Origin: Candidatus Vampirococcus lugosii
Lineage (GTDB): Bacteria; Patescibacteriota; Gracilibacteria; Absconditabacterales; Absconditicoccaceae
Direction of reading: 5' to 3'
NCBI RefSeq assembly: GCF_018420025.1
Contig: NZ_JAEDAM010000033.1
Location: forward strand, 1-10,932
Length of the DNA stretch: 10,932 bases
The notes beneath the pieces were generated by a model that was not told the origin of the DNA, searched no databases, and was given only the letters and a program-made list of their open reading frames with translations. Shown piece by piece: positions 421 through 10,727 of the stretch (the first letter of the stretch is position 1; each line of letters opens with the position of its first letter). Made by a program: the position numbers and the translations under genes.

Positions 421-453
421 TTATACTAATATTATTAAATGTTTTTAGTATAA
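421..453. repeat. Inverted repeat or hairpin directly after the transposase stop
   Basis: TTATACTAA (421-429) and TTAGTATAA (445-453) are exact reverse complements separated by a 15-nt loop. This could be a terminator or part of the IS end. Confidence 0.4.
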
Positions 454-487
454 TATACAAGAATTTTTTAATTATTATATAAATTTA

Positions 488-1627
488 TTGGATGAATGAG
501 AAGAAAGAGAATTATATTGAACTAATATATATGCTTATGCATGATTTTATAATATATTAAATTGAGATAATGAGGCTGGAGAAGAGCTTTTGGATAAATG
601 AATGTTAACATTAGATTCACTTTGCCTTGATTACATTTTATATTATTCACAAAATAATGAACAAAAGAAATCGGCATTATATTTTCTTTCTTTAGTTGAG
701 GATACTTGAAATAGTAAATTTGAATTATTAGATTTAATCTATAAATCTGAATGATATGAATGATTAAAATATTTTGCAACAAAAGATGTTGATGAAATTA
801 AATATTTATTTAAATCTAATGAATCATATAAAGAAAGTGAAATTATTTCATACTTGGCATCTGTTGTATATTTATTTAAAGTTATTGTTAATAATATTTT
901 AAATCATAAAGATTTGGATAAAAATAAAAAACTATTTATTGCAGAATTTAGAGTTCTTTATGATAATCTTAAAGATTTATCAATTTTTATATCATATGAT
1001 AAAGATAATCTTAAAATTTGATTAGCAAAAATATGATATATATTTACAATGTCTGTTGACTGATTTGACAAATTATTTCCTGAATTGTTCAAATCTACAA
1101 TTATGGATTATGAAAATAATAAAGAAGAATATACGGATTTGGAAAAAATTAATGAACTTGCAAATTTTGCATTCAAAGATTGATTAATAAAATATCAATA
1201 TGATTTTTGGAAAAATTTGGAAACTTATATAGTTAATTCTAATTATGATGATTTAAATAAACTATATTATTCTATATTTGATAATTATAATGAAAATTTT
1301 TTTATTTCTAGCGAAGAAGAATATATAGATATTAGTGGTATCAAAGTGCAAGAAAGATTATCAGCTTTTATTTCACTTTTTGCAAATAGTTATTTATCAT
1401 TATTAAAATCATATGATTTAGATATTGATCAAAATGTAATTAAAAAAATTTGAGTTATTTTTAATAAACTATGAAAAAATATTGAGTTTAATAAAGCATT
1501 AAGACATAATTGAATTAATATTGATTGAAACTATTTTGATGATAAAGAAATTTTTAGAAGCGAAAAACTTGATGATGATAAATATAAAAATAATTTAAAT
1601 AATAATATCTCATTTTTATTACATTAA
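488..1627 (+). CDS. Hypothetical protein (about 379 aa), acidic and Asn/Tyr/Lys-rich, no recognisable motif
   Basis: Frame 2 is open from 449 to TAA 1625-1627 when about 16 in-frame TGA are read as Gly. It absorbs track ORF 1217-1453. TTG 488 is the first plausible start and ATG 602 is an alternative. No signal peptide or TM segment is seen. Confidence 0.6.
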
Positions 1628-1706
1628 TTTTACTTTTGTTAAAGTAAATGTTTTAAATATTTTTTGATAAATTTTATTCAAAAGTTTTTTATATTCAAAA
1701 AATTAT

Positions 1707-1778
1707 AGTTTCTAAAATAGAATAGAAACTTAAAAATCAAAAAGTTGATTTTGAAATATAAATCATTATTATGATTTA
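1707..1778. repeat. Cluster of three short perfect hairpins in the 290-bp intergenic region
   Basis: The three stems are AGTTTCTA/TAGAAACT (1707-1714 / 1723-1730), AAAATCAA/TTGATTTT (1733-1740 / 1745-1752) and TAAATCAT/ATGATTTA (1759-1766 / 1771-1778). Each stem is 8 bp and AT-rich. Confidence 0.3.
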
Positions 1779-1856
1779 ATACTATTAAATATTTATGTTA
1801 TCTTTTTAATAAGAAATTTGTATTCTAACTTTTTTAAGAAATGTTTAATATAAATA

Positions 1857-1884
1857 TTGATTTTTTTGTTAATAAAATTATAAT
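1857..1884 (+). promoter_or_regulatory. Candidate sigma70-type promoter for the ATPase gene
   Basis: TTGATT (1857-1862), a 16-nt spacer and TATAAT (1879-1884) lie 34 nt upstream of ATG 1918. Such matches are frequent by chance in DNA this AT-rich. Confidence 0.3.
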
Positions 1885-1917
1885 TGCAAAAAATTTTTTA
1901 ATATTTATTTTTGGTTT

Positions 1918-4509
1918 ATGTTAAATAAATTGTTTTTTTATGCTAAGATTTGTTGAGAAAAAATTGCAAATCTTACTAATTCTGAAACACAAAAATCAGA
2001 AAACAAATGATGAGAAGAATTTTTATTTTATCAAATCAAACCTTTCAAAGATGAGGAAAATACTCTTGCTTATTGGCAAGGTTTTTTGGACAGTATACAT
2101 TGAAATAAAGCAAAATTAACTTTTATTGTTGCTTGAAATAGCAAAAATATAAAAATATATGTCAAAATTTCTAATGATTTCAAAGATTTTTTTGAAAATA
2201 ATTTCTATTCATCATTCAAAAATTCTGAATTAATATTAAAAAAAATTAATTTTCCTGATCCTAAATATAATTTAATATTTAAAGATGCAGTATTTCATAC
2301 TAAACAAGATTTTGTAAAAGATTGAATTTATGTAGATCCTATAAATAATTTTTATTCTTTATATTATGATATTTCTGTTTGATTTCAACTTTTTACTTAT
2401 GTTGAATATGATTTTACAGTATCCAAAAAGTCTATATTTATTAATATATTAATCAATATTTTATACTTTATAAAATATGTTTTTATAAAATTATTTTTCC
2501 GACGAAAAGATAAAGAAGATGAAAAAGAAGATAAAGAAAATTTAATAGATAATCAAGAAAAAAAATATTTTGCTAAATTATGATTATCTTTTGCGATATC
2601 ATGAGATTTTAATGAAAAAAATGTTAAAAATATAAAAAAAAATCTAAAATCAATTTTTTGAAATTTATCTAGTTCTTGAGATTTAAAAATTTCAAAAAAT
2701 TATGAAAAATTTAATGTAGATAGTAATTCATTAATAAATTTTTTTCATTTACCAAATTGAGATTTTGAAGTAAAAAATTTGAATTATTTAGAATACAAAA
2801 AACTTTCTTATCCATGAAATATTCCAACTATTGATAATTCTATTAAAAATGATATTACTTTACTTTGAATTACTGATTACAAAAATGATAATATAAAATT
2901 TGGTATTAGAAATGAAGATAAATTTCGTCATGTTTATGTTATCGGTAAAACTTGAATGTGAAAATCAACATTAATTTCAAATATGGCAAGAAGTGATATG
3001 ATTACAAATAAATGACTAGCAGTAATTGATCCTCATTGAGATTTAGTAGAAACTCTTCTTGAACATACTCCTAGTTGGAGAATAAATGATATTGTTCTTT
3101 TTGATGTTGCAGATTACAAATATCCTATTGCTTTCAATATTCTTGAATATAATACTGAAGAAGAAAAAAATTTGGTTGTAAGTGGTGTAGTTGGTACTTT
3201 CAAAAAACTTTATTGAGAATCTTGGGGACCGAGATTAGAATATATATTAAGAAATGTAATACTTTCTTTAGTAGATTATCCTTGAGCAACACTATTACAT
3301 TTGATAAGAATTTTGAAAGATAAAAATTTTAAAGACGAAGTCGTAGAACATCTTACTGATCCTATTGTAATTAAATTTCGAAAAGAAGAATTTGATAAAT
3401 GGAATGATAAATTTAAAGATGAAGCTATAGCTCCTATTGTAAATAAAGTTGGTCAGTTCCTATCTTCTCCTATTATAAGAAATATTTTTGGACAGAGTAA
3501 AACTCAATTAAATATAAGAAAACTTATGGATTCTTGAAAAATAATTCTTATAAATTTAAGTAAATGAAAAATATGAGAAGATAATGCAAGTATGGTAGGT
3601 TCATTTTTGGTTACCAAATTTCAAATAGATGCTATGTCTAGAGCAGATATTAGTTTTAATGAAAGAAGAGAATTTTATTTATATATAGATGAATTTCAAA
3701 ATTTTGCTACAGAAAGTTTTGAAAACATTCTTTCAGAAGCTAGGAAATATAAATTATCTTTAGTAGTCGCCAATCAATATATATCTCAAATAAATGAAAA
3801 AATAAGAAATGCTATATTTGGTAATGTATGAACTATAATTACTTTTAGTTTATGATATGAAGATAGTCAATTAATATCTTCTCAGTTTAAATGATTAGTT
3901 TCTGGAAATGATATAGTATCTCTCCCAAAATTTAAAGCTTATGCCAAAATAATGGTAGATGGTAGTACTACAGATCCTTTTAGTATGTCTAGTTTCCCAC
4001 TACCAGATCCTACAAATTGAGATGAAGTTAAACAAAAAATTATAAAACAATCTCGCCAAAGATATGCTATAGAAAAAGAAAGATTGGAAACTTTAATAAA
4101 AAATTGGTCAGAAAAAAAATTTTCCAAAACTGAAAAAGCAGTACAAAAAGCAAAAGAAATTTCAAAATCTAAAAATAATGAAAGCAAAAATAATAAATCA
4201 GAAAATAATAAATCAGAAAATAATGAAATTAAAAAAACTGAAAATTCTAAATCTTTACAAAATATTGATGATAAAAATACTGTAAAACTTTGAAACTGGT
4301 ATGATTGAATAGTAAAACTTAAATATAATTATTGATTATTTGTAATAGTATGAGATAATGAATGATTACTTCATAAGAAAAAAATTAATGTTCCAGATTG
4401 AGTAAAATGGAAAGATATGTATGATATATCTGATCAAATAAAAGTATATGCTGAAGATTACAAAGAAGTAAATTGAGAAAAAAAAGTAGTATGGACACAA
4501 TTAATTTAA
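1918..4509 (+). CDS. TraD/VirD4/TrwB-type (type IV coupling-protein-like) P-loop ATPase with N-terminal domain, TM helix and C-terminal S1-like OB fold
   Basis: Frame 1 is open from ATG 1918 to TAA 4507-4509 with TGA=Gly. It joins track ORFs 3301-3537, 3592-3831 and 4084-4293. Motifs: Walker A VIGKTGMGKST (core 2944-2970, two Gly encoded by TGA), VIDPHGDL (3028-3042), Walker B region FYLYIDEFQNF (DE at 3688-3693), then LSEARKYKLSLVVANQYISQI...FGNVGT. There is a hydrophobic helix SIFINILINILYFIKYVFIKLFF (2431-2499). The C-terminus GNWYDGIVKLKYNYGLFVIVGDNEGLLHKK...DQIKVYAEDY fits the S1-domain pattern. Confidence 0.85.
4180..4224 (+). repeat. In-frame 15-bp tandem repeat (about 3 units) in the ATPase low-complexity linker
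   Basis: aaatcagaaaataat occurs at 4195-4209 and again at 4210-4224 (both encode KSENN). A degenerate unit gaaagcaaaaataat (ESKNN) precedes them at 4180-4194. Confidence 0.7.
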
Positions 4510-4528
4510 TTTTATTTTAAGTTTAATA
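4365..4528 (+). repeat. Direct repeat copy 1 (164 bp): last 48 codons, stop and 19 nt downstream of the ATPase gene
   Basis: A base-by-base comparison shows 4365-4528 identical to 5010-5173 (offset 645 bp). Identity breaks at 4364/5009 and at 4529/5174. Confidence 0.95.
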
Positions 4529-4590
4529 TATATACTAATAAATACTATCAAATATATGATAGATTTTATTTATAATAAATACAAACACAG

Positions 4591-4917
4591 ATGAACAAAA
4601 AAATAATATTATGAACAATTATTTTATCAGCTACTTGAATTATGACAAGTGCATATGCTAATAATTATGTTTTATGATCAAATAATACAAATGAAATAAT
4701 AAATTTACCAGCTGAAAATGGAAAAATAAATTTACCAGCAGAAATAAATAATAAATTTTGAAGTATCAGGAAAAATTTAAATAAATATAAAATGAAACAA
4801 TTGAAAGAGATTAAAGAACTTGCTAAAAATTGAAATTTTGAATGAGCTAGAGAACTAGCAGAAGAATATTGACTTTGAAATGTTATAAAAAAAATTAAAA
4901 ATTGATATCAAAATTAA
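4591..4917 (+). CDS. Small exported protein (108 aa) of unknown function
   Basis: ATG 4591 to TAA 4915-4917, frame 1, with 9 in-frame TGA read as Gly. The N-terminus MNKKIILGTIILSATGIMTSAYA looks like a signal peptide. There is an internal duplicated INLPAE motif and a helical C-terminus KQLKEIKELAKNGNFEGARELAEEYGLG. Confidence 0.65.
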
Positions 4918-4920
4918 GTT

Positions 4921-4956
4921 AAAAAAATAGAGGAAATTAATTACTCTATTTTTTTA
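4921..4956 (+). terminator. Rho-independent-type terminator, potentially bidirectional
   Basis: AAAAAAATAGAG (4921-4932) is the exact reverse complement of CTCTATTTTTTT (4944-4955), with an 11-nt loop. The 3' arm ends in a 7-T run and the 5' arm begins with a 7-A run. It starts 4 nt after the stop of the small gene. Confidence 0.5.
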
Positions 4957-5154
4957 TAGGAAATATTTTTGGATATAGTAAAACTTATATTTATTAGTCG
5001 CTAATCAATATTACTTCATAAGAAAAAAATTAATGTTCCAGATTGAGTAAAATGGAAAGATATGTATGATATATCTGATCAAATAAAAGTATATGCTGAA
5101 GATTACAAAGAAGTAAATTGAGAAAAAAAAGTAGTATGGACACAATTAATTTAA
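4957..5154 (+). pseudogene. Decayed, internally deleted relic of a second copy of the TraD/VirD4-type ATPase gene
   Basis: taggaaatat (4957-4966) equals 3741-3750. The stretch 4991-5011 matches 3760-3780 (the LVVANQY codons) at 19/21 bases. It then runs straight into the perfect copy of the gene's last 48 codons and stop (5010-5154). The junction shares an AT microhomology, skips about 585 bp of the parent gene and is out of frame. In-frame TAG and TAA codons lie upstream. Confidence 0.5.
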
Positions 5155-5173
5155 TTTTATTTTAAGTTTAATA
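5010..5173 (+). repeat. Direct repeat copy 2 (164 bp), identical to 4365-4528
   Basis: See copy 1. Its last 6 nt (5168-5173) also supply the final sense codon and stop codon of the convergent minus-strand gene. Confidence 0.95.
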
Positions 5174-5935
5174 CGATTCATATTTCAAAGTTCATCATTC
5201 AAAATATATTTCATCTTCATTAATATAATTTGAATAATCCAAATCACTTACAAATCATTTTTTTTCTATAGCTTGCAAAAATGATTCTAAATGATTATAA
5301 GAAGTTCAAGATATATAACTAAAAACTACTTTAATATCATTATTGTCAATATTTTTTATAATTTCAAGTGTATTATCTATTTCCATCATTTCTATCTTAA
5401 AACTAATTTCCAAAGCTTGTTTAATTCATTTTTCTCATTCTAATTTTAAAGTTTCAAATTTATCTTGTGATACTCAATAATTTATTGGTATTTCAATATT
5501 ATATTTATTAAATATAGATTCTATCGCTTGTATATGTTGATATTTAGAATTTGTTATACTCTCAAAAACTTTAATATTATATTTTTCATAAAAATAATTG
5601 TAAAGATCATAAGACAATATTTTTTCAAAATATTGATTCATAAGTTTTTCAGTTTCGTAACTAGATAAAGCTTGTTTTTCTATTGTTTTAATCATAGATT
5701 TAATATTATTTTTTTGATTTTTATTTTGTTTTCAAATATTTTTTGATATTTTTTTATTTTGTTCTCAAATATTTCTTGATAATTGTCTATTTTGTTTTAT
5801 CAAAATTCATCAAGTTTTTTGTATATAATTGTTTTGCTTATTTGGTATTTCTAAATTTGAATAAATTCAGTAACTTGAACTTGTAATTAATATTGTTATA
5901 CTTCCTATAGTTAATAATATTTTTATATTTTTCAT
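5168..5935 (-). CDS. Exported DUF2202 (ferritin-like superfamily) protein, 255 aa
   Basis: The minus-strand ATG is at 5935-5933 and the TAA stop is the complement of 5168-5170. There are 12 in-frame TGA read as Gly, and the CDS extends track ORF 5474-5695. The N-terminus MKNIKILLTIGSITILITSSS is hydrophobic. The core ...LSSYETEKLMNQYFEKILSYDLYNYFYEKYNIKVFESITNSKYQHIQAIESIFNKYNIEIP...KQALEISFKIEMMEIDNTLEII...DIKVVFSYISGTSYNHLESFLQAIEKKG follows the two-half DUF2202 layout. Confidence 0.7.
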
Positions 5936-6036
5936 TTATATAATTTAGTTATTTAAACAGTTTTTTTAATTATTAAATTATAAATATTATAAGATATTAT
6001 CTTAAATTAAAATTAAATATTTTATATAATGAATTA

Positions 6037-6064
6037 TTGAAAAACTTATTTTTTTCTGTATTAT
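6037..6064 (+). promoter_or_regulatory. Candidate promoter for the mod-res operon
   Basis: TTGAAA (6037-6042), a 16-nt spacer and TATTAT (6059-6064) lie 31 nt upstream of ATG 6096. The AT-rich background makes the call weak. Confidence 0.3.
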
Positions 6065-6095
6065 GAAAGCAATTTTTAATTAATATTTTTAAAAT

Positions 6096-7940
6096 ATGTC
6101 AGAAAAAAATATTATAAAAACAAAATGAAGACCTATGCTTCACTGGGAATGAAAAACAGCAAGTTTAAATATTGAATACTACCCTACTCAAGAAAAAGAA
6201 GTTTATTGAAATAAAAAATCAACTGATTTTAATAAAATATTTTGGTGAGATAATTTTCAAGTTTTATCTCATCTTCTCAAAGATTATAAATGAAAAATTG
6301 ATTTAATTTATATAGACCCTCCTTTTGATAGTAAAGCTGATTATGTAAAGAAAGTTAAATTTAAAGGTAAAAAAATTGAAGCTCAAGAACAAAGTATTTT
6401 TGAAGAAAAACAATATGGAGATATATGGTGAAAAGATGAGTATTTACAGTTTATGTATGAAAGACTTTTACTTTTAAGAGAACTTTTAAGTGATACTTGA
6501 AGTATATATCTACACTGTGACCATCATAAATCTCATCATCTAAGATGTATGATGGATGAAGTATTTTGAGAAAATAACTTTAGAAATGAAATTATTTGGA
6601 AATATACTTGATGAACTGATAGTAAGAATTCTTTCTGAAAAAAACACGATAATATATTTTTTTATACAAAAAACTCTGAGTATGATTTTAATATGCAATA
6701 TGAAGATTTTGCTGAAGCTACAATAAAAAGATTTAATAAAATAGATGAAAATTGAAAGAGATATAAAGAAACTTTTAATACTGATTGAAGTTCATATAGA
6801 ACATATATGAAAGAATGATGAAAGAATATGGCTGATACTTGGGCTGATGAAGAAATTATAGAAGAAAATATAGTAGTTAGTAGTCATAATCAAAGTGTAG
6901 ATTACCCAACACAAAAACCTGAAGCTTTGCTTGAGAGAATTATTAAAGCAAGTTCTAATCCTTGAGATTTAGTTTTGGATTGTTTTATGTGAAGCTGAAC
7001 AACTTGTGCAGTAGCTCAAAAGTTATGAAGAAAATGGATATGATGTGATATAAATACTTGAGCTATTCAAACAACAACAAAAAGGTTAAATAAAATTATT
7101 GAAGAACAAAAAGAAAAATATTTGGAAAAGATAAATAATGATGATAATAAAATACTTAATGCAATTATAGAAGCAATTTTAGTTAATTGATGAAAAGCAA
7201 ACTATACAAACGATATTTATCCATATATAAGAGAAAATTACCCTGAAATATATAATAAAGAAATTAACACTTTTAAATGAAGAATAAATGCAACAGTTCA
7301 AAGATATACAAAAGATATGGAATGATACAACTGAAATGAAATATTTATTTCTCATTGAAAATGAATTTGAACTTATAGTTTAAAAAATGAAGTTAATACT
7401 CCTTTATCTTTCAAGGTATATAATGTAAATGAATATAGTGCTTTCAAAAATAAGGATGAGTGAATACAGACTTACAAAGATATACTTCTTGAAGCATATG
7501 GAGTAGAAAGTATAAGATGATTTTTTGATTGAAAAACAAGTAGTAGTTTTGTAAAAATTATAGACCCAAATAGGCTTTTAAGTAAAAAAGATATTGATGA
7601 AGTTTTGAAAAATATTGATGATACACAAGATGAATTTATATCAAATAAAAGCCCTCTAAAATATTATGATGTAGAACTTATATGTTCTTGAAAAGAGCTT
7701 GATATAGAAAACTATATTAAGAAAACCAACAATACACAAATCAAGATAATTGTAAGAGATATATTAATTGAAAAAGAATGACTTATATTCAAAGAAAAGC
7801 CAGAACTTGAGTATGATTATAAAATAAATTGAAAAGAATTGAATATAAATATTATAGATTTTATATCTCCTGTATTATTAAAAAAACTTGATATAGATAA
7901 CAAAAAAACAAGCTGAAAAAACTTTAATAGAACATTTTAA
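6096..7940 (+). CDS. mod: Type III restriction-modification methyltransferase (Mod), beta-class N6/N4 amino-methyltransferase; reading frame ends prematurely
   Basis: ATG 6096, frame 3, open to TAA 7938-7940 with TGA=Gly. Motifs: N-terminal MLHWEGK (6141-6155: cac tgg gaa TGA aaa), motif IV IDLIYIDPPF (DPPF 6315-6326), PTQKPEALLERII, and motif I LVLDCFMGSGTTCAVA (6984-7004, both Gly encoded by TGA). Motif IV before motif I, together with a downstream res gene, is the Type III Mod arrangement. Confidence 0.85.
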
Positions 7941-8148
7941 TCAAGTAATAGATAGCATATCTATTGATATTGATTATGATGGAAATTTATTTAATGCTGA
8001 AATAATAGATAATCCTTGAAAGAATGAAGTAGTAAAATGAAATTATAAATGGGAATACAAAAATAATTGAAAATATACTATAGCAATGAAAATTATAGAT
8101 ATTTTATGAGAAGAATTATTTGTAAGTTTTGATATAAAAATTAAATAA
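7897..8148 (+). pseudogene. mod: C-terminal segment of Mod displaced into the +1 frame (frameshifted continuation of the mod gene)
   Basis: Frame 1 is open from 7897 to TAA 8146-8148 and has no ATG until about 8086. It encodes ...QAEKTLIEHFNQVIDSISIDIDYDGNLFNAEIID...YKWEYKNNGKYTIAMKIIDILGEELFVSFDIKIK. As I recall them, full-length homologues of this methyltransferase class end in this kind of conserved C-terminal module. It overlaps the frame-3 ORF by 44 nt, and that overlap contains an A7 tract and an A6 tract. Confidence 0.6.
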
Positions 8149-8171
8149 TTTAAGAGTTTTTAAAATAAAAT

Positions 8172-10727
8172 ATGAAACAATTTATAGATAAATTAAAAGT
8201 TAAAATTCTTGATTGGAAATTAAATTGATATGAATGAACATATAAAGAAACTCAAAATATTTTGAAATATATAAATAATAATAGATATTTAAGAGAACCT
8301 CAAATTGATGCTTTTGAAACTTATGTATATATAAAAGAAATTCTTTGAAATAAACCTATATGAGAATTAATTTTTGATATTATATGAGATAAAAAGGAGA
8401 TAATAAAAAGCTTATGATTATCTCAAGATGAAATGCTTGATTTAATGATGTCTCCTGAAAAAATGGATGAAAAAATAAAGTCTATTTTATGAGAAAATTC
8501 AAATTCTGATTACTCAAATCAAGTTTATGCTCTTACTATGTGAACTTGAAAAACAGTGTTGATGACAGTTTTTATGTTATATGAGATAGTGCTTTCTTAT
8601 TATCACAGTGAAGATAAAAGATTTGCAAAAAATTTTGTATTTTTCGCACCTGATAAAACAATTATTGAAAGTTTAAAAGAAATTAAGTCATTTGATTACA
8701 ATTTAGTAATACCAAAAGAATATTCAAATAGTTTGTTGCAAATAAAATACCATTATTTAGAAGATACTATAACAAAATTAACTATACCAGAAGGCTCAAA
8801 TTACAATATTATAGTAAGTAATTCTCAAAAAATAATTATTAAGAGTAAAAAGGCAAGTAATGATTTACAAAAACAAATATTTTGAGATGATAAGTCAAAA
8901 GAAAAATCTGAAGTAGAAAATGAGAGATTTACAGCACTTAAAAATCTTGATAATTTATCTATATTTATAGATGAAGCTCATCATAGTTTTTGAAAAACAT
9001 TGGATAATGAAATAAAAAAATTAAAATTTACAATAAATAGAATACACGAAAATAAACCACTTGTAAATTGTATAAATATGACTTGAACACCATATGTTAA
9101 TTGACAACTTATTGAAGATGTTGTTTTTTATTATGGATTAAAAAATTGAATACAAGACTGAATATTAAAACAAGTTGAGGTTATAGAATATTGAGAAGTA
9201 AAATGAGAAGAATTTTTACTAAATGTAATAACTGAATTTTGGCAAAGTTTTTGAGAAAACAAAGTAGAATGAAAACTAGCTAAAATTGCTATATATACAG
9301 CAAGTATTGAAGAATTAAAAGAAGTTAGGAGAACTTTAGAAACAAAAGTATTTAAAAGTTTAAAAATAGATACAAGAAAAATAACTGAAAACCATACTTG
9401 AGCAAGTAAACAAGAAATAGAAGAATTTAAAAATCTTGACACTAAAGAAAGTAAAAAACAATTTATACTTCTTGTATGAAAATGAACTGAATGATGGAAC
9501 TGCAAAAGTTTGTTTGCAACCGCTTTATATAGAAAACCTCCTCAAATATTTACATTACAAGCAACAACGAGATGTTTAAGAGCAATTTGAGATAATAACA
9601 AAAAAGCAAAGATATTCTTATCAAAACAGAATTATAAAATACTTGATAAAGAACTTAAGAAAAATTTTGATATAGAGATATCAGATTTACAAGGTACAAA
9701 AAGAGAATCTCAAGAAATAAATTGTACTATAGAAAAGAGAAAAACTATAAAAATAAAAAAAATTATTAAAGATATAAAGGCTATAAAGAAAAATACTTTT
9801 GATGATTTTATATTAAGTTTCAATAATTATAAATGAAGAGAGATATATAGAAATGTAAAAGAACTTAAATTAGAAAATAATGAAGCTATTTATACTGAAT
9901 GAAAATTAGAAAAAAATAATACAAATATAAATAAAGATTATTCTTATTATGAAATACTTTGAATAATAAATAAATATACTCATATTAATTTTAATATAAT
10001 TAAAAAAATATTTAAAAATAACAAAATAACAAAAGATGAATTAGTAAAAGAAATTAGTAAAGATAATTATAAATTAAATTTTATAATAGATGAGTTAATA
10101 AAAGAATTCTATAATTACGATATTGAAGAAAAAATAGTTGGTGAAGATATGAAAATAATAAAACTTGATGTGAATAAATTTAATTTTGAAGTTTGAGTTG
10201 ATAAAATAGATAGATGACTTGTTTGTTATAAAGAAGATAAAGAAGAAAATAGGCTTTGATTCCATTTAAATCCTTATAATTTTGATAGTACTGATGAAAG
10301 AGAAATTTTTGCACATATTAGAAAAGCATTAAAAGATAATGAAAATGTAAAAGAAATATATTTTACTTGATGAACTGATAAAACAAATTATACAGATTTT
10401 TATTTTGCTTATGAAATTTTTAAGGATTGACAATTATATATTTCAAACTATTTTCCTGATTTATTGGTAGAAATAGAAAATTCTAATTGAAAAACAAAAT
10501 ATATTGTTTTGGAAATAAAATGATGAGATAAAAAATCCGACTATTTAAGTGCAAAACAGAATTATAAAAACTGAGAAAAAATTACTAATGAAGTATTTGC
10601 AAAAGAAATTTGATTTATGAAGTTTAAACAAATAAATAAAGATTTTGAATATAGAATAGTATTTGATTGAAATACACCATCTGAAAAATTAAATACTGAA
10701 AAATATATAAAAAATAATTTAATATAA
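8172..10727 (+). CDS. res: Type III restriction enzyme Res subunit: SF2 DEAH helicase-like ATPase with C-terminal PD-(D/E)xK nuclease, 851 aa
   Basis: ATG 8172 (23 nt after the mod C-terminal stop) to TAA 10725-10727, frame 3, uninterrupted with TGA=Gly. It absorbs track ORF 8556-8885. Motifs: LREPQIDAFE, motif I ALTMGTGKT (8538-8555, Gly encoded by TGA), motif II FIDEAHH (8970-8984), motif III MTGTP, LLVGKGTEGWNC, LQATTRCLR. The C-terminal nuclease motif is YFPDLLVEIE...KYIVLEIKGG (10452-10520). Confidence 0.85.

Follow-up and report, generated by a model that had tools for sequence, protein, structure and literature searches.

How the end of one gene came to stand twice on a contig of Candidatus Vampirococcus lugosii, with a small secreted-protein gene held between the two copies, and whether the intervening segment was gained or lost by the strains in which it varies, is the question raised by the locus described here. 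The locus lies on C94, one of the 102 contigs of a 1,255,885-bp assembly (G000) of this recoded bacterium from the candidate phyla radiation (CPR), lineage Absconditabacteria (SR1); the whole contig of 10,932 nucleotides was analysed and is referred to as the window. A 164-bp direct repeat (R) is built there from the 3' end of a HerA/VirD4-type ATPase gene, and its two copies (R1 and R2) bracket a 481-bp insert (B) with sp108, the secreted-protein gene. The reading favoured here, at a probability of roughly 0.58, is that of a strain-variable cassette at the ATPase gene end, where an old partial duplication has decayed, R has been kept by gene conversion and the cassette has been lost by recombination. 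As a class, the structure is most likely an "insertion with long target duplication" (ILTD) or a partial duplication with decay.

The two copies of R, claimed as identical and 645 bp apart in the earlier note on this DNA, indeed agree at all 164 positions with a start-to-start distance of 645 bp, and R has just these two copies in the entire assembly, its 25-nt tail alone having one further occurrence, on contig C93. The first copy had been described as the last 48 codons of the ATPase gene, its stop and 19 nt downstream, of which the stop and the 19 nt are right and the number of complete codons is 47. The duplicated target comprises the last 47 codons of the S1-like domain of the ATPase with their stop, then 13 nt of spacer, and finally the end of a convergent gene encoding a DUF2202 protein (its stop and last codon); in R2 this stop occupies 5168-5170 and the last codon 5171-5173, which agrees with the claim that the repeat ends together with the DUF2202 gene. 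On alignment evidence R1 is the native end of the ATPase gene, because the closest orthologs align to the very end (through residue 862) and several of them show an S1 match there. A 36-mer from within R found no match in the JGI metagenome contigs or the GTDB genome contigs.

Immediately upstream of R2, 58 nt were observed to be a relic of a more upstream part of the same gene, made of two patches that abut each other, with patch 1, patch 2 and R2 standing in three different frames (Table 1). Parent sequence is missing at two places, 250 nt between the patches and 584 nt between patch 2 and R2, the latter with AT at the junction. The earlier note had proposed that a partial copy of the ATPase gene decayed and left the second repeat as its tail, and the relic proved significant and collinear, out of frame, internally deleted and joined at AT as described; its mapping was partly wrong, as the match to 3473-3504 had been missed. 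Thus the pairing of 4957-4966 with 3741-3750 is true (10/10) but is the lesser match beside 4954-4985 against 3473-3504 (29/32), and the pairing of 4991-5011 with 3760-3780 (19/21) is true and lies inside the longer match of 4986-5011 with 3755-3780 (23/26). When the 60 nt upstream of R2 were aligned with the ATPase gene as a single segment, a score of 49 was obtained against 24.9 +/- 4.4 for random genome 60-mers (0/400 reaching it, z ~5.5), and as a collinear chain a score of 82 against 42.9 +/- 5.6 (0/150 reaching it, z ~7). It is the ATPase gene of the same genome that is matched, and an origin from a paralog or a foreign ortholog was rejected, as these score at most 29. Two wider extents of the relic were also rejected: the interior of the insert as decayed ATPase sequence, 4529-4953 being at background score against the gene, and a HMMER extension of the similarity to 4792-5010, which was judged spurious as it falls in the sp108 frame, is not collinear with the relic and is Lys/Asn-rich low complexity.

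The two parts of the second copy exhibit different levels of divergence from the parent gene, with 0/164 differences in R and 6/56 in the relic patches (Fisher p = 2.2e-4), and because of this contrast gene conversion of R is inferred, which fits the homogenisation suggested in the earlier note. The right-hand copy would accordingly be the tail of a once longer partial ATPase copy, covering at least 3473-4528, which would have lost 250 and 584 bp by deletion; RecA-dependent gene conversion (RecA is present in the genome) would keep the 164 bp of R the same as the end of the functional gene, whereas the 32- and 26-nt patches, cut off by deletions, would be too short for conversion and would have drifted by about 11%. 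Homologous recombination between the copies of R would then remove the cassette precisely, with both flanking genes left intact, and the cassette could be regained through uptake of DNA carrying the filled allele (ComEC, ComEA and type IV pili are reported; PMC8080830). Collinear parent fragments spread over three frames, a perfect block of sufficient length for RecA-mediated exchange and a precise pop-out allele in the population are all features shared with partial gene duplications that undergo deletional decay and concerted evolution. The interpretation in the earlier note, a segmental duplication or Campbell-type insertion with later decay, is supported in part, and the original event may have been either of these or an insertion with long target duplication. 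A simple tandem segmental duplication is insufficient, since R is duplicated but R plus B is not; a plain tandem duplication would also double the sp108 segment, whereas here B is single-copy in the genome and the gene end alone is doubled, with foreign sequence between.

The presence of a repeat of about 160 bp over a gene 3' end, together with a nearby non-coding second copy, also recalls the template and variable repeats of a diversity-generating retroelement, here supposedly acting on the C-terminal domain of the ATPase. This reading has next to no probability and is refuted: no reverse transcriptase (PF00078) was found in the genome, the repeats are 100% identical without adenine-specific (A-to-N) differences, and the fold of the target is S1-like, neither that of a C-type lectin nor that of an Ig-like variable domain.

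Table 1. Features of the repeat-bracketed cassette and of its neighbourhood in the window.
Feature	Positions	Strand	Description or basis
R1 (copy 1)	4365-4528	+	from the third base of ATPase codon 816 through codons 817-863 and the stop (4507-4509) to 19 nt downstream
R2 (copy 2)	5010-5173	+	out of frame with both relic patches; last 6 nt = DUF2202 final codon and stop, other strand
Insert B, 481 bp	4529-5009		promoter-like stretch, sp108, terminator-like hairpin, 58-nt relic
645-bp unit (B, 481 bp, and one R)	4529-5173		absent from SRR13241709 contig L023
Relic patch 1	4954-4985	+	parent 3473-3504, motif IIRNIFGQSKT, 29/32
Relic patch 2	4986-5011	+	parent 3755-3780, motif LSLVVANQY, 23/26; AT (5010-5011) shared with R2
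HerA/VirD4(TraG/TrwB)-type ATPase gene, 863 codons, C-terminal S1-like domain	1918-4509	+	Pfam, orthologs
29-mer across the R1/insert edge	4504-4532	+	ATTTAATTTTATTTTAAGTTTAATATATA; one other perfect copy, C93 17457-17485, minus strand, intergenic
Promoter/5'-leader-like stretch	4526-4555	+	36-65 nt upstream of sp108
sp108, 108-codon secreted-protein gene	4591-4917	+	open reading frame, signal peptide
Terminator-like hairpin	4920-4956	+	13-bp A/T-rich stem, 3 G-C pairs, 11-nt loop, U-run
DUF2202 (ferritin-like) exported-protein gene, convergent with ATPase gene	5168-5935	-	Pfam DUF2202 3.5e-17
IS630-type DDE transposase fragment	1-420		gene map, code 25
379-codon gene, no assigned function	488-1627		gene map, code 25
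Type III mod	6096-7940		gene map, code 25
SF2 (superfamily 2) helicase-like 851-codon gene, read as type III res	8172-10727		gene map, code 25

Independent assemblies of the locus were available as Logan contigs (k = 31) from the runs SRR13241708 and SRR13241709, both with the locus at 100% identity. In SRR13241709, contig L023 (SRR13241709_374) joins 3592-4528 straight to 5174-6349 at 100% identity, with one R and without the insert, and the ATPase and DUF2202 genes stand tail to tail with their stops 13 nt apart, which is the very product predicted in the earlier note for the excision of one 645-bp unit; only this one-copy form is shown by the Logan contig of that run, which goes halfway towards the single-copy support named in the earlier note as a refutation. 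An amplified (tandem) form of the unit was not seen in these contigs. In SRR13241708, contig L022 (SRR13241708_58) covers 425-4528 and ends on the last base of R1, and contig L024 (SRR13241708_2734) spans 5144-6086, so that it begins k-1 = 30 nt within R as measured from the right end; the reads of this run therefore truly branch at the right edge of R, as expected if both the insert and the DUF2202 gene succeed R.

Beyond 6349, contig L023 enters 26 nt of foreign sequence. These correspond exactly to the end (CTCATCTTTGTAG...) of a mobile repeat (reference copy C4:8135-8435) of which the genome has more than 40 copies, 84-97% identical, many at contig ends and all starting at the same base. 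The 26-nt tail was considered as proof of chimeric threading of the Logan contigs and rejected, there being no shared k-mer and an exact mobile-repeat terminus. The mobile repeat interrupts mod at 6349/6350 in this contig, and it seems to be an active MITE (miniature inverted-repeat transposable element) or IS-end (insertion sequence end) element whose insertion has disabled the type III methylase gene of one strain; a copy of the IS630 transposase on C4 is truncated by this repeat. As the insertion in mod is real, the SRR13241709 population is a different strain. Divergence between strains amounts to 0-0.2%, and since the relic looks far older than that, the cassette-free allele is, judged from sequence divergence, most likely a secondary loss.

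Several observations weigh against this reading. The polarity of loss versus gain rests on the divergence of the relic being read as age, and the GTDB species comparators are all from other genera, where synteny downstream of the ATPase gene is not kept. No k-mer is peculiar to the cassette-free path at k = 31, so that L023 represents missing insert branches and not a unique junction. In SRR13241708, L022 passes the left edge of R unbroken, which means that the relic-to-R junction is rare, missing or clipped in that run, and sp108 occurs in no Logan gene call or contig on record (code 25, code 4 and from Met18), a protein word search having found the window copy only; other contig ends of SRR13241708 do not lie at repeats, and coverage gaps are therefore a sufficient explanation. 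If the source of the data is as published, the libraries were products of multiple displacement amplification (MDA) or MALBAC, from about 10 consortia each, sequenced at 2x125 bp and assembled separately with SPAdes 3.6 (PMC8080830). Such 2x125-bp reads, which were probably used, are too short to span the 164-bp R, and coverage would be uneven. The assembly moreover holds artefacts in the form of a palindromic contig, C33, and of C59 with its 3,962-bp period. C33 (5,660 bp) is its own reverse complement at both ends, as is typical of amplification or assembly hairpins, and C59 (7,530 bp) repeats itself with 3,568 bp perfect and is concatemer-like; many contig ends of the assembly overlap by 122 nt.

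The same circumstances, namely an R longer than the probable 125-nt reads, a one-copy contig in one run, an unbranched left edge with no sp108 call in the other, and a palindrome and a concatemer-like contig in the assembly, would also fit a reading in which each cell has a single R and the assembler looped once through a chimera of whole-genome amplification, a small circle or sequence of another strain or locus, so that no one molecule would carry the two-copy arrangement. An artefact of this kind is unlikely, as the R-to-B and relic-to-R junctions must exist in the reads and the two link one and the same unique segment of 481 nt to R, at either end and in direct order, an outcome that a pair of random chimeras would not give; nor do phi29 or PCR chimeras yield a relic diverged at 6/56 positions. 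The SRR13241708 contigs also break exactly at the right edge of R, and a second cassette, of 3.9 kb on C93, behaves alike, with its absence in SRR13241709 tied to single-nucleotide differences that mark a different strain.

This second locus was detected in a genome-wide scan for local repeats, in which most repeats were in-frame tandem domains within giant proteins and perfect non-tandem repeats built from a gene 3' end were observed at two loci only, on C94 and C93. On C93, 17791-17978 and 21890-22077 form a perfect 188-bp direct repeat composed of the last 42 codons of nth (endonuclease III) and 61 nt, its copies 4,099 bp apart and bracketing genes for exported proteins of 405 and 768 aa (locus L040); no relic was found at this locus, and the 164-nt and 188-nt repeats have no sequence in common. 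In SRR13241709 (L041), nth is followed directly by the gene beyond the second copy and the 3.9-kb cassette is absent; L041 differs from the deposited contig by 9 mismatches in about 4 kb and therefore comes from a distinct strain. In SRR13241708 the contig L039 has its start within the 188-bp repeat, 30 nt from the right end, again a branch point. A look-up of the 768-aa cassette protein returned no record. A cassette of 3.9 kb cannot vanish by tip-clipping, so the cassette-free reading at C94 is credible too.

The main rival to loss from an old duplication is the opposite polarity, a recent gain. The empty form would then be ancestral, and the filled one would go back to a single insertion that duplicated a 164-bp target (ILTD proper) or to a 645-bp circle of R and B that entered in Campbell fashion; the relic patches would be filler from template switching during that event and not an old pseudogene. 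A recent gain is consistent with repeats that show no mismatch right up to both edges, with patches that meet each other and R2 at overlaps of 0-2 nt, like the junctions left by template switching, and with the perfect 188-bp repeat without a relic at the C93 locus, and ILTD is a class documented with empty comparators (PMC2853133). A copy made in one step should nevertheless be near-identical throughout, whereas the patches have 6 differences in 56 positions and R none in 164 (p = 2.2e-4), and the strains differ from each other by just 0-0.2%; a recent gain is for these reasons regarded as improbable, though ahead of an artefact.

A further alternative is that the locus is the remnant of a site-specific integration, with R as the att core at the gene 3' end and the cassette moved in trans by a tyrosine or serine recombinase. 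Identical direct repeats at gene 3' ends, at two loci and with presence or absence between strains, would suit such a history, and tyrosine recombinase genes (PF00589) are carried by C90, C18 and C92 only; no recombinase, in comparison, was found on C94 or within the C93 locus, the two repeats are unrelated and offer no common att core, and a 164-bp att site adjoined by a relic from far upstream in the gene is not expected from an attP x attB exchange. A 29-mer shared by the two loci (ATTTAATTTTATTTTAAGTTTAATATATA) lies at the R1/B edge on C94 but about 300 nt outside the repeat on C93. Site-specific integration is on this evidence very unlikely.

Cis-mobilizable elements (CIMEs) and the tandem accretion of integrative elements at gene 3' ends are known from the ICESt1/ICESt3 family of Streptococcus thermophilus, where ICE denotes an integrative and conjugative element. 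The cassette resembles CIMEs in being recombinase-less, variable between strains and placed between identical repeats of the 3' end of a host gene that stays intact, and differs from them in that no cognate integrase or ICE was identified here, the two loci lack a common core, and an upstream relic is unexpected from att recombination.

Insertions with long target duplication were reportedly described by Nobusato et al. in 2000. They have been defined by repeats of more than 30 bp, a single copy in an empty comparator, the lack of a mobility gene and an insert below 20 kb (Furuta, Abe & Kobayashi 2010, Nucleic Acids Res 38:2428, PMC2853133); the repeats range from 46 to about 420 bp, most cases come from naturally competent species, and restriction-modification genes in the insert were a screening criterion of that 2010 survey (PMC2853133). 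On C94, the repeats measure 164 bp and are otherwise unique in the genome, one copy is present in L023 (a k = 31 contig), the insert is shorter than 20 kb, and no mobility gene was found in its 481 bp by gene map and Pfam scan, sp108 being the sole gene. The likeness extends to a short insert without transposase or integrase, to repeats that are far longer than the target duplications of transposons and overlap a gene 3' end, and to the DNA-uptake genes of the organism. The cargo differs, being a small secreted-protein gene and not a restriction-modification system, and the type III mod-res operon of the window (6096-10727) lies outside both repeat copies. Also different are the decayed relic of the upstream gene inside the insert, which implies a once longer duplication (at least 1,056 bp) or a separate older event, the lineage, here a recoded CPR bacterium, and the polarity of insertion versus deletion, here read from the divergence of the relic.

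The earlier note had placed a possible leader hairpin, a 108-codon signal-peptide gene and a strong terminator in the insert. The reading frame of sp108 has 108 codons with 9 TGA-Gly codons, no other stop and a signal-peptide-like N-terminus. No Pfam match was obtained for the product, and residues 50-107 are predicted to form three helices (predicted local distance difference test, pLDDT, 86-91). The C-terminal half is one copy of a unit, approximately ELxESGDFEGAxELxEExG, of which 3-5 copies occur in 17 other secreted cluster representatives (P0125-P0141; exhaustive HMMER search), and a 219-aa secreted protein of the same-family genome G079 matches sp108 at a pairwise E = 4e-11; this helical-repeat family also occurs in standard-code bacteria and is without a Pfam model. 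As its C-terminal half matches a repeat family of secreted proteins, sp108 is a real gene and not a chance frame, and by sequence comparison it is a one-unit member of this unnamed secreted helical-repeat family. The terminator-like hairpin is real (-11.9 kcal/mol, z = -3.85, 0/200 shuffles folding equally well) but AT-rich, and was not called by a simple consensus terminator scan, and the putative leader hairpin upstream of sp108 is weak (z = -2.4).

The stretch upstream of sp108 is 28/30 identical to C67 1420-1449 = C37 6188-6217, located 45-70 nt upstream of a cold-shock protein gene, and this similarity suggests a strong promoter or 5' leader common to the two genes. The 29-mer that crosses the R1/insert edge has no further copy in the genome at up to 5 mismatches except R2 (4 mismatches), and its copy on C93 lies beyond the second nth repeat, 3 nt past a 70-aa reading frame; it may serve both loci as a promoter or go back to an insertion history that they have in common. 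Its use as a general promoter or att motif is unsupported, as C93 and C94 alone carry it.

The genes of the window, which has a G+C content of about 20%, are readable only with TGA as Gly (code 25), under which the Walker A motif of the ATPase becomes GKTGMGKST and DPHGD and other glycine motifs appear. The ATPase matches DUF87 (1.8e-9), TraG-D_C (2.2e-6) and TrwB_AAD_bind (1.9e-5), with a weak S1 match at residues 790-846, and several of its homologs carry the S1 domain (PF00575). Orthologs were detected in 24/24 same-family genomes searched, at 47-66% identity; 59% identity was found to a Ca. Absconditicoccus praedator protein with a HerA domain, and homologs are annotated as Absconditabacterales proteins. 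Tandem units of 15 bp (AAATCAGAAAATAAT-like), in frame at 4155-4242, encode a linker rich in Lys, Asn, Ser and Glu that joins the ATPase core to the S1-like tail; the length of this linker varies among orthologs, and in several relatives core and tail were matched separately. A comparison with related genomes had been proposed in order to see whether the ATPase and DUF2202 genes are directly adjacent there; DUF2202 is patchy in the family (11/141 genomes) and never adjoins an ATPase ortholog, and the genes downstream of the ATPase gene are unrelated in six relatives from other genera that were compared for synteny.

At the left end of the window, 104-452 (the 3' part and end of the IS630-type transposase gene) recurs inverted at C4:7786-8134 with 99.7% identity over 349 nt and is also found on C98 around 12685-12715, and a SRR13241708 Logan contig begins at 425, the edge of this transposase repeat. 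Published data on Ca. Vampirococcus lugosii agree with this genome, giving a size of 1.3 Mb, the use of code 25, a single type III restriction system, AbiE, and ComEC, ComEA and type IV pili (PMC8080830).

The mechanism alone is ordinary homologous recombination acting on a known kind of structure, and what is new is the lineage; the interest is moderate and comes mainly from the recurrence in one genome and from both alleles being seen within one bloom. As a tentative and rather doubtful extension, Absconditabacteria such as Vampirococcus may exchange cassettes without a recombinase and by homology, accessory genes that have been taken up through the competence machinery lodging with a long duplication at the 3' ends of conserved genes. 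If this is true, the perfect repeats would serve both as a pop-out switch and as homology arms for re-entry, the ATPase relic would be the record of an earlier, longer arm, and small self-contained genes for secreted or surface proteins or for defence would be the cargo moving between bloom cells. Recoded CPR genomes poor in classical mobile elements would thereby have a general route for the flux of accessory genes. Deposited single-cell and mini-metagenome assemblies may show one allele only of such repeat-bracketed cassettes, by which comparisons of gene content in CPR bacteria can be affected. The locus would document gain and loss of accessory genes at the ends of conserved genes, without a dedicated recombinase, in an uncultured predatory CPR bacterium with both alleles in one bloom, and it bears on how tiny host-dependent genomes keep flexible sets of exported proteins, which are here candidates for interaction with the host.

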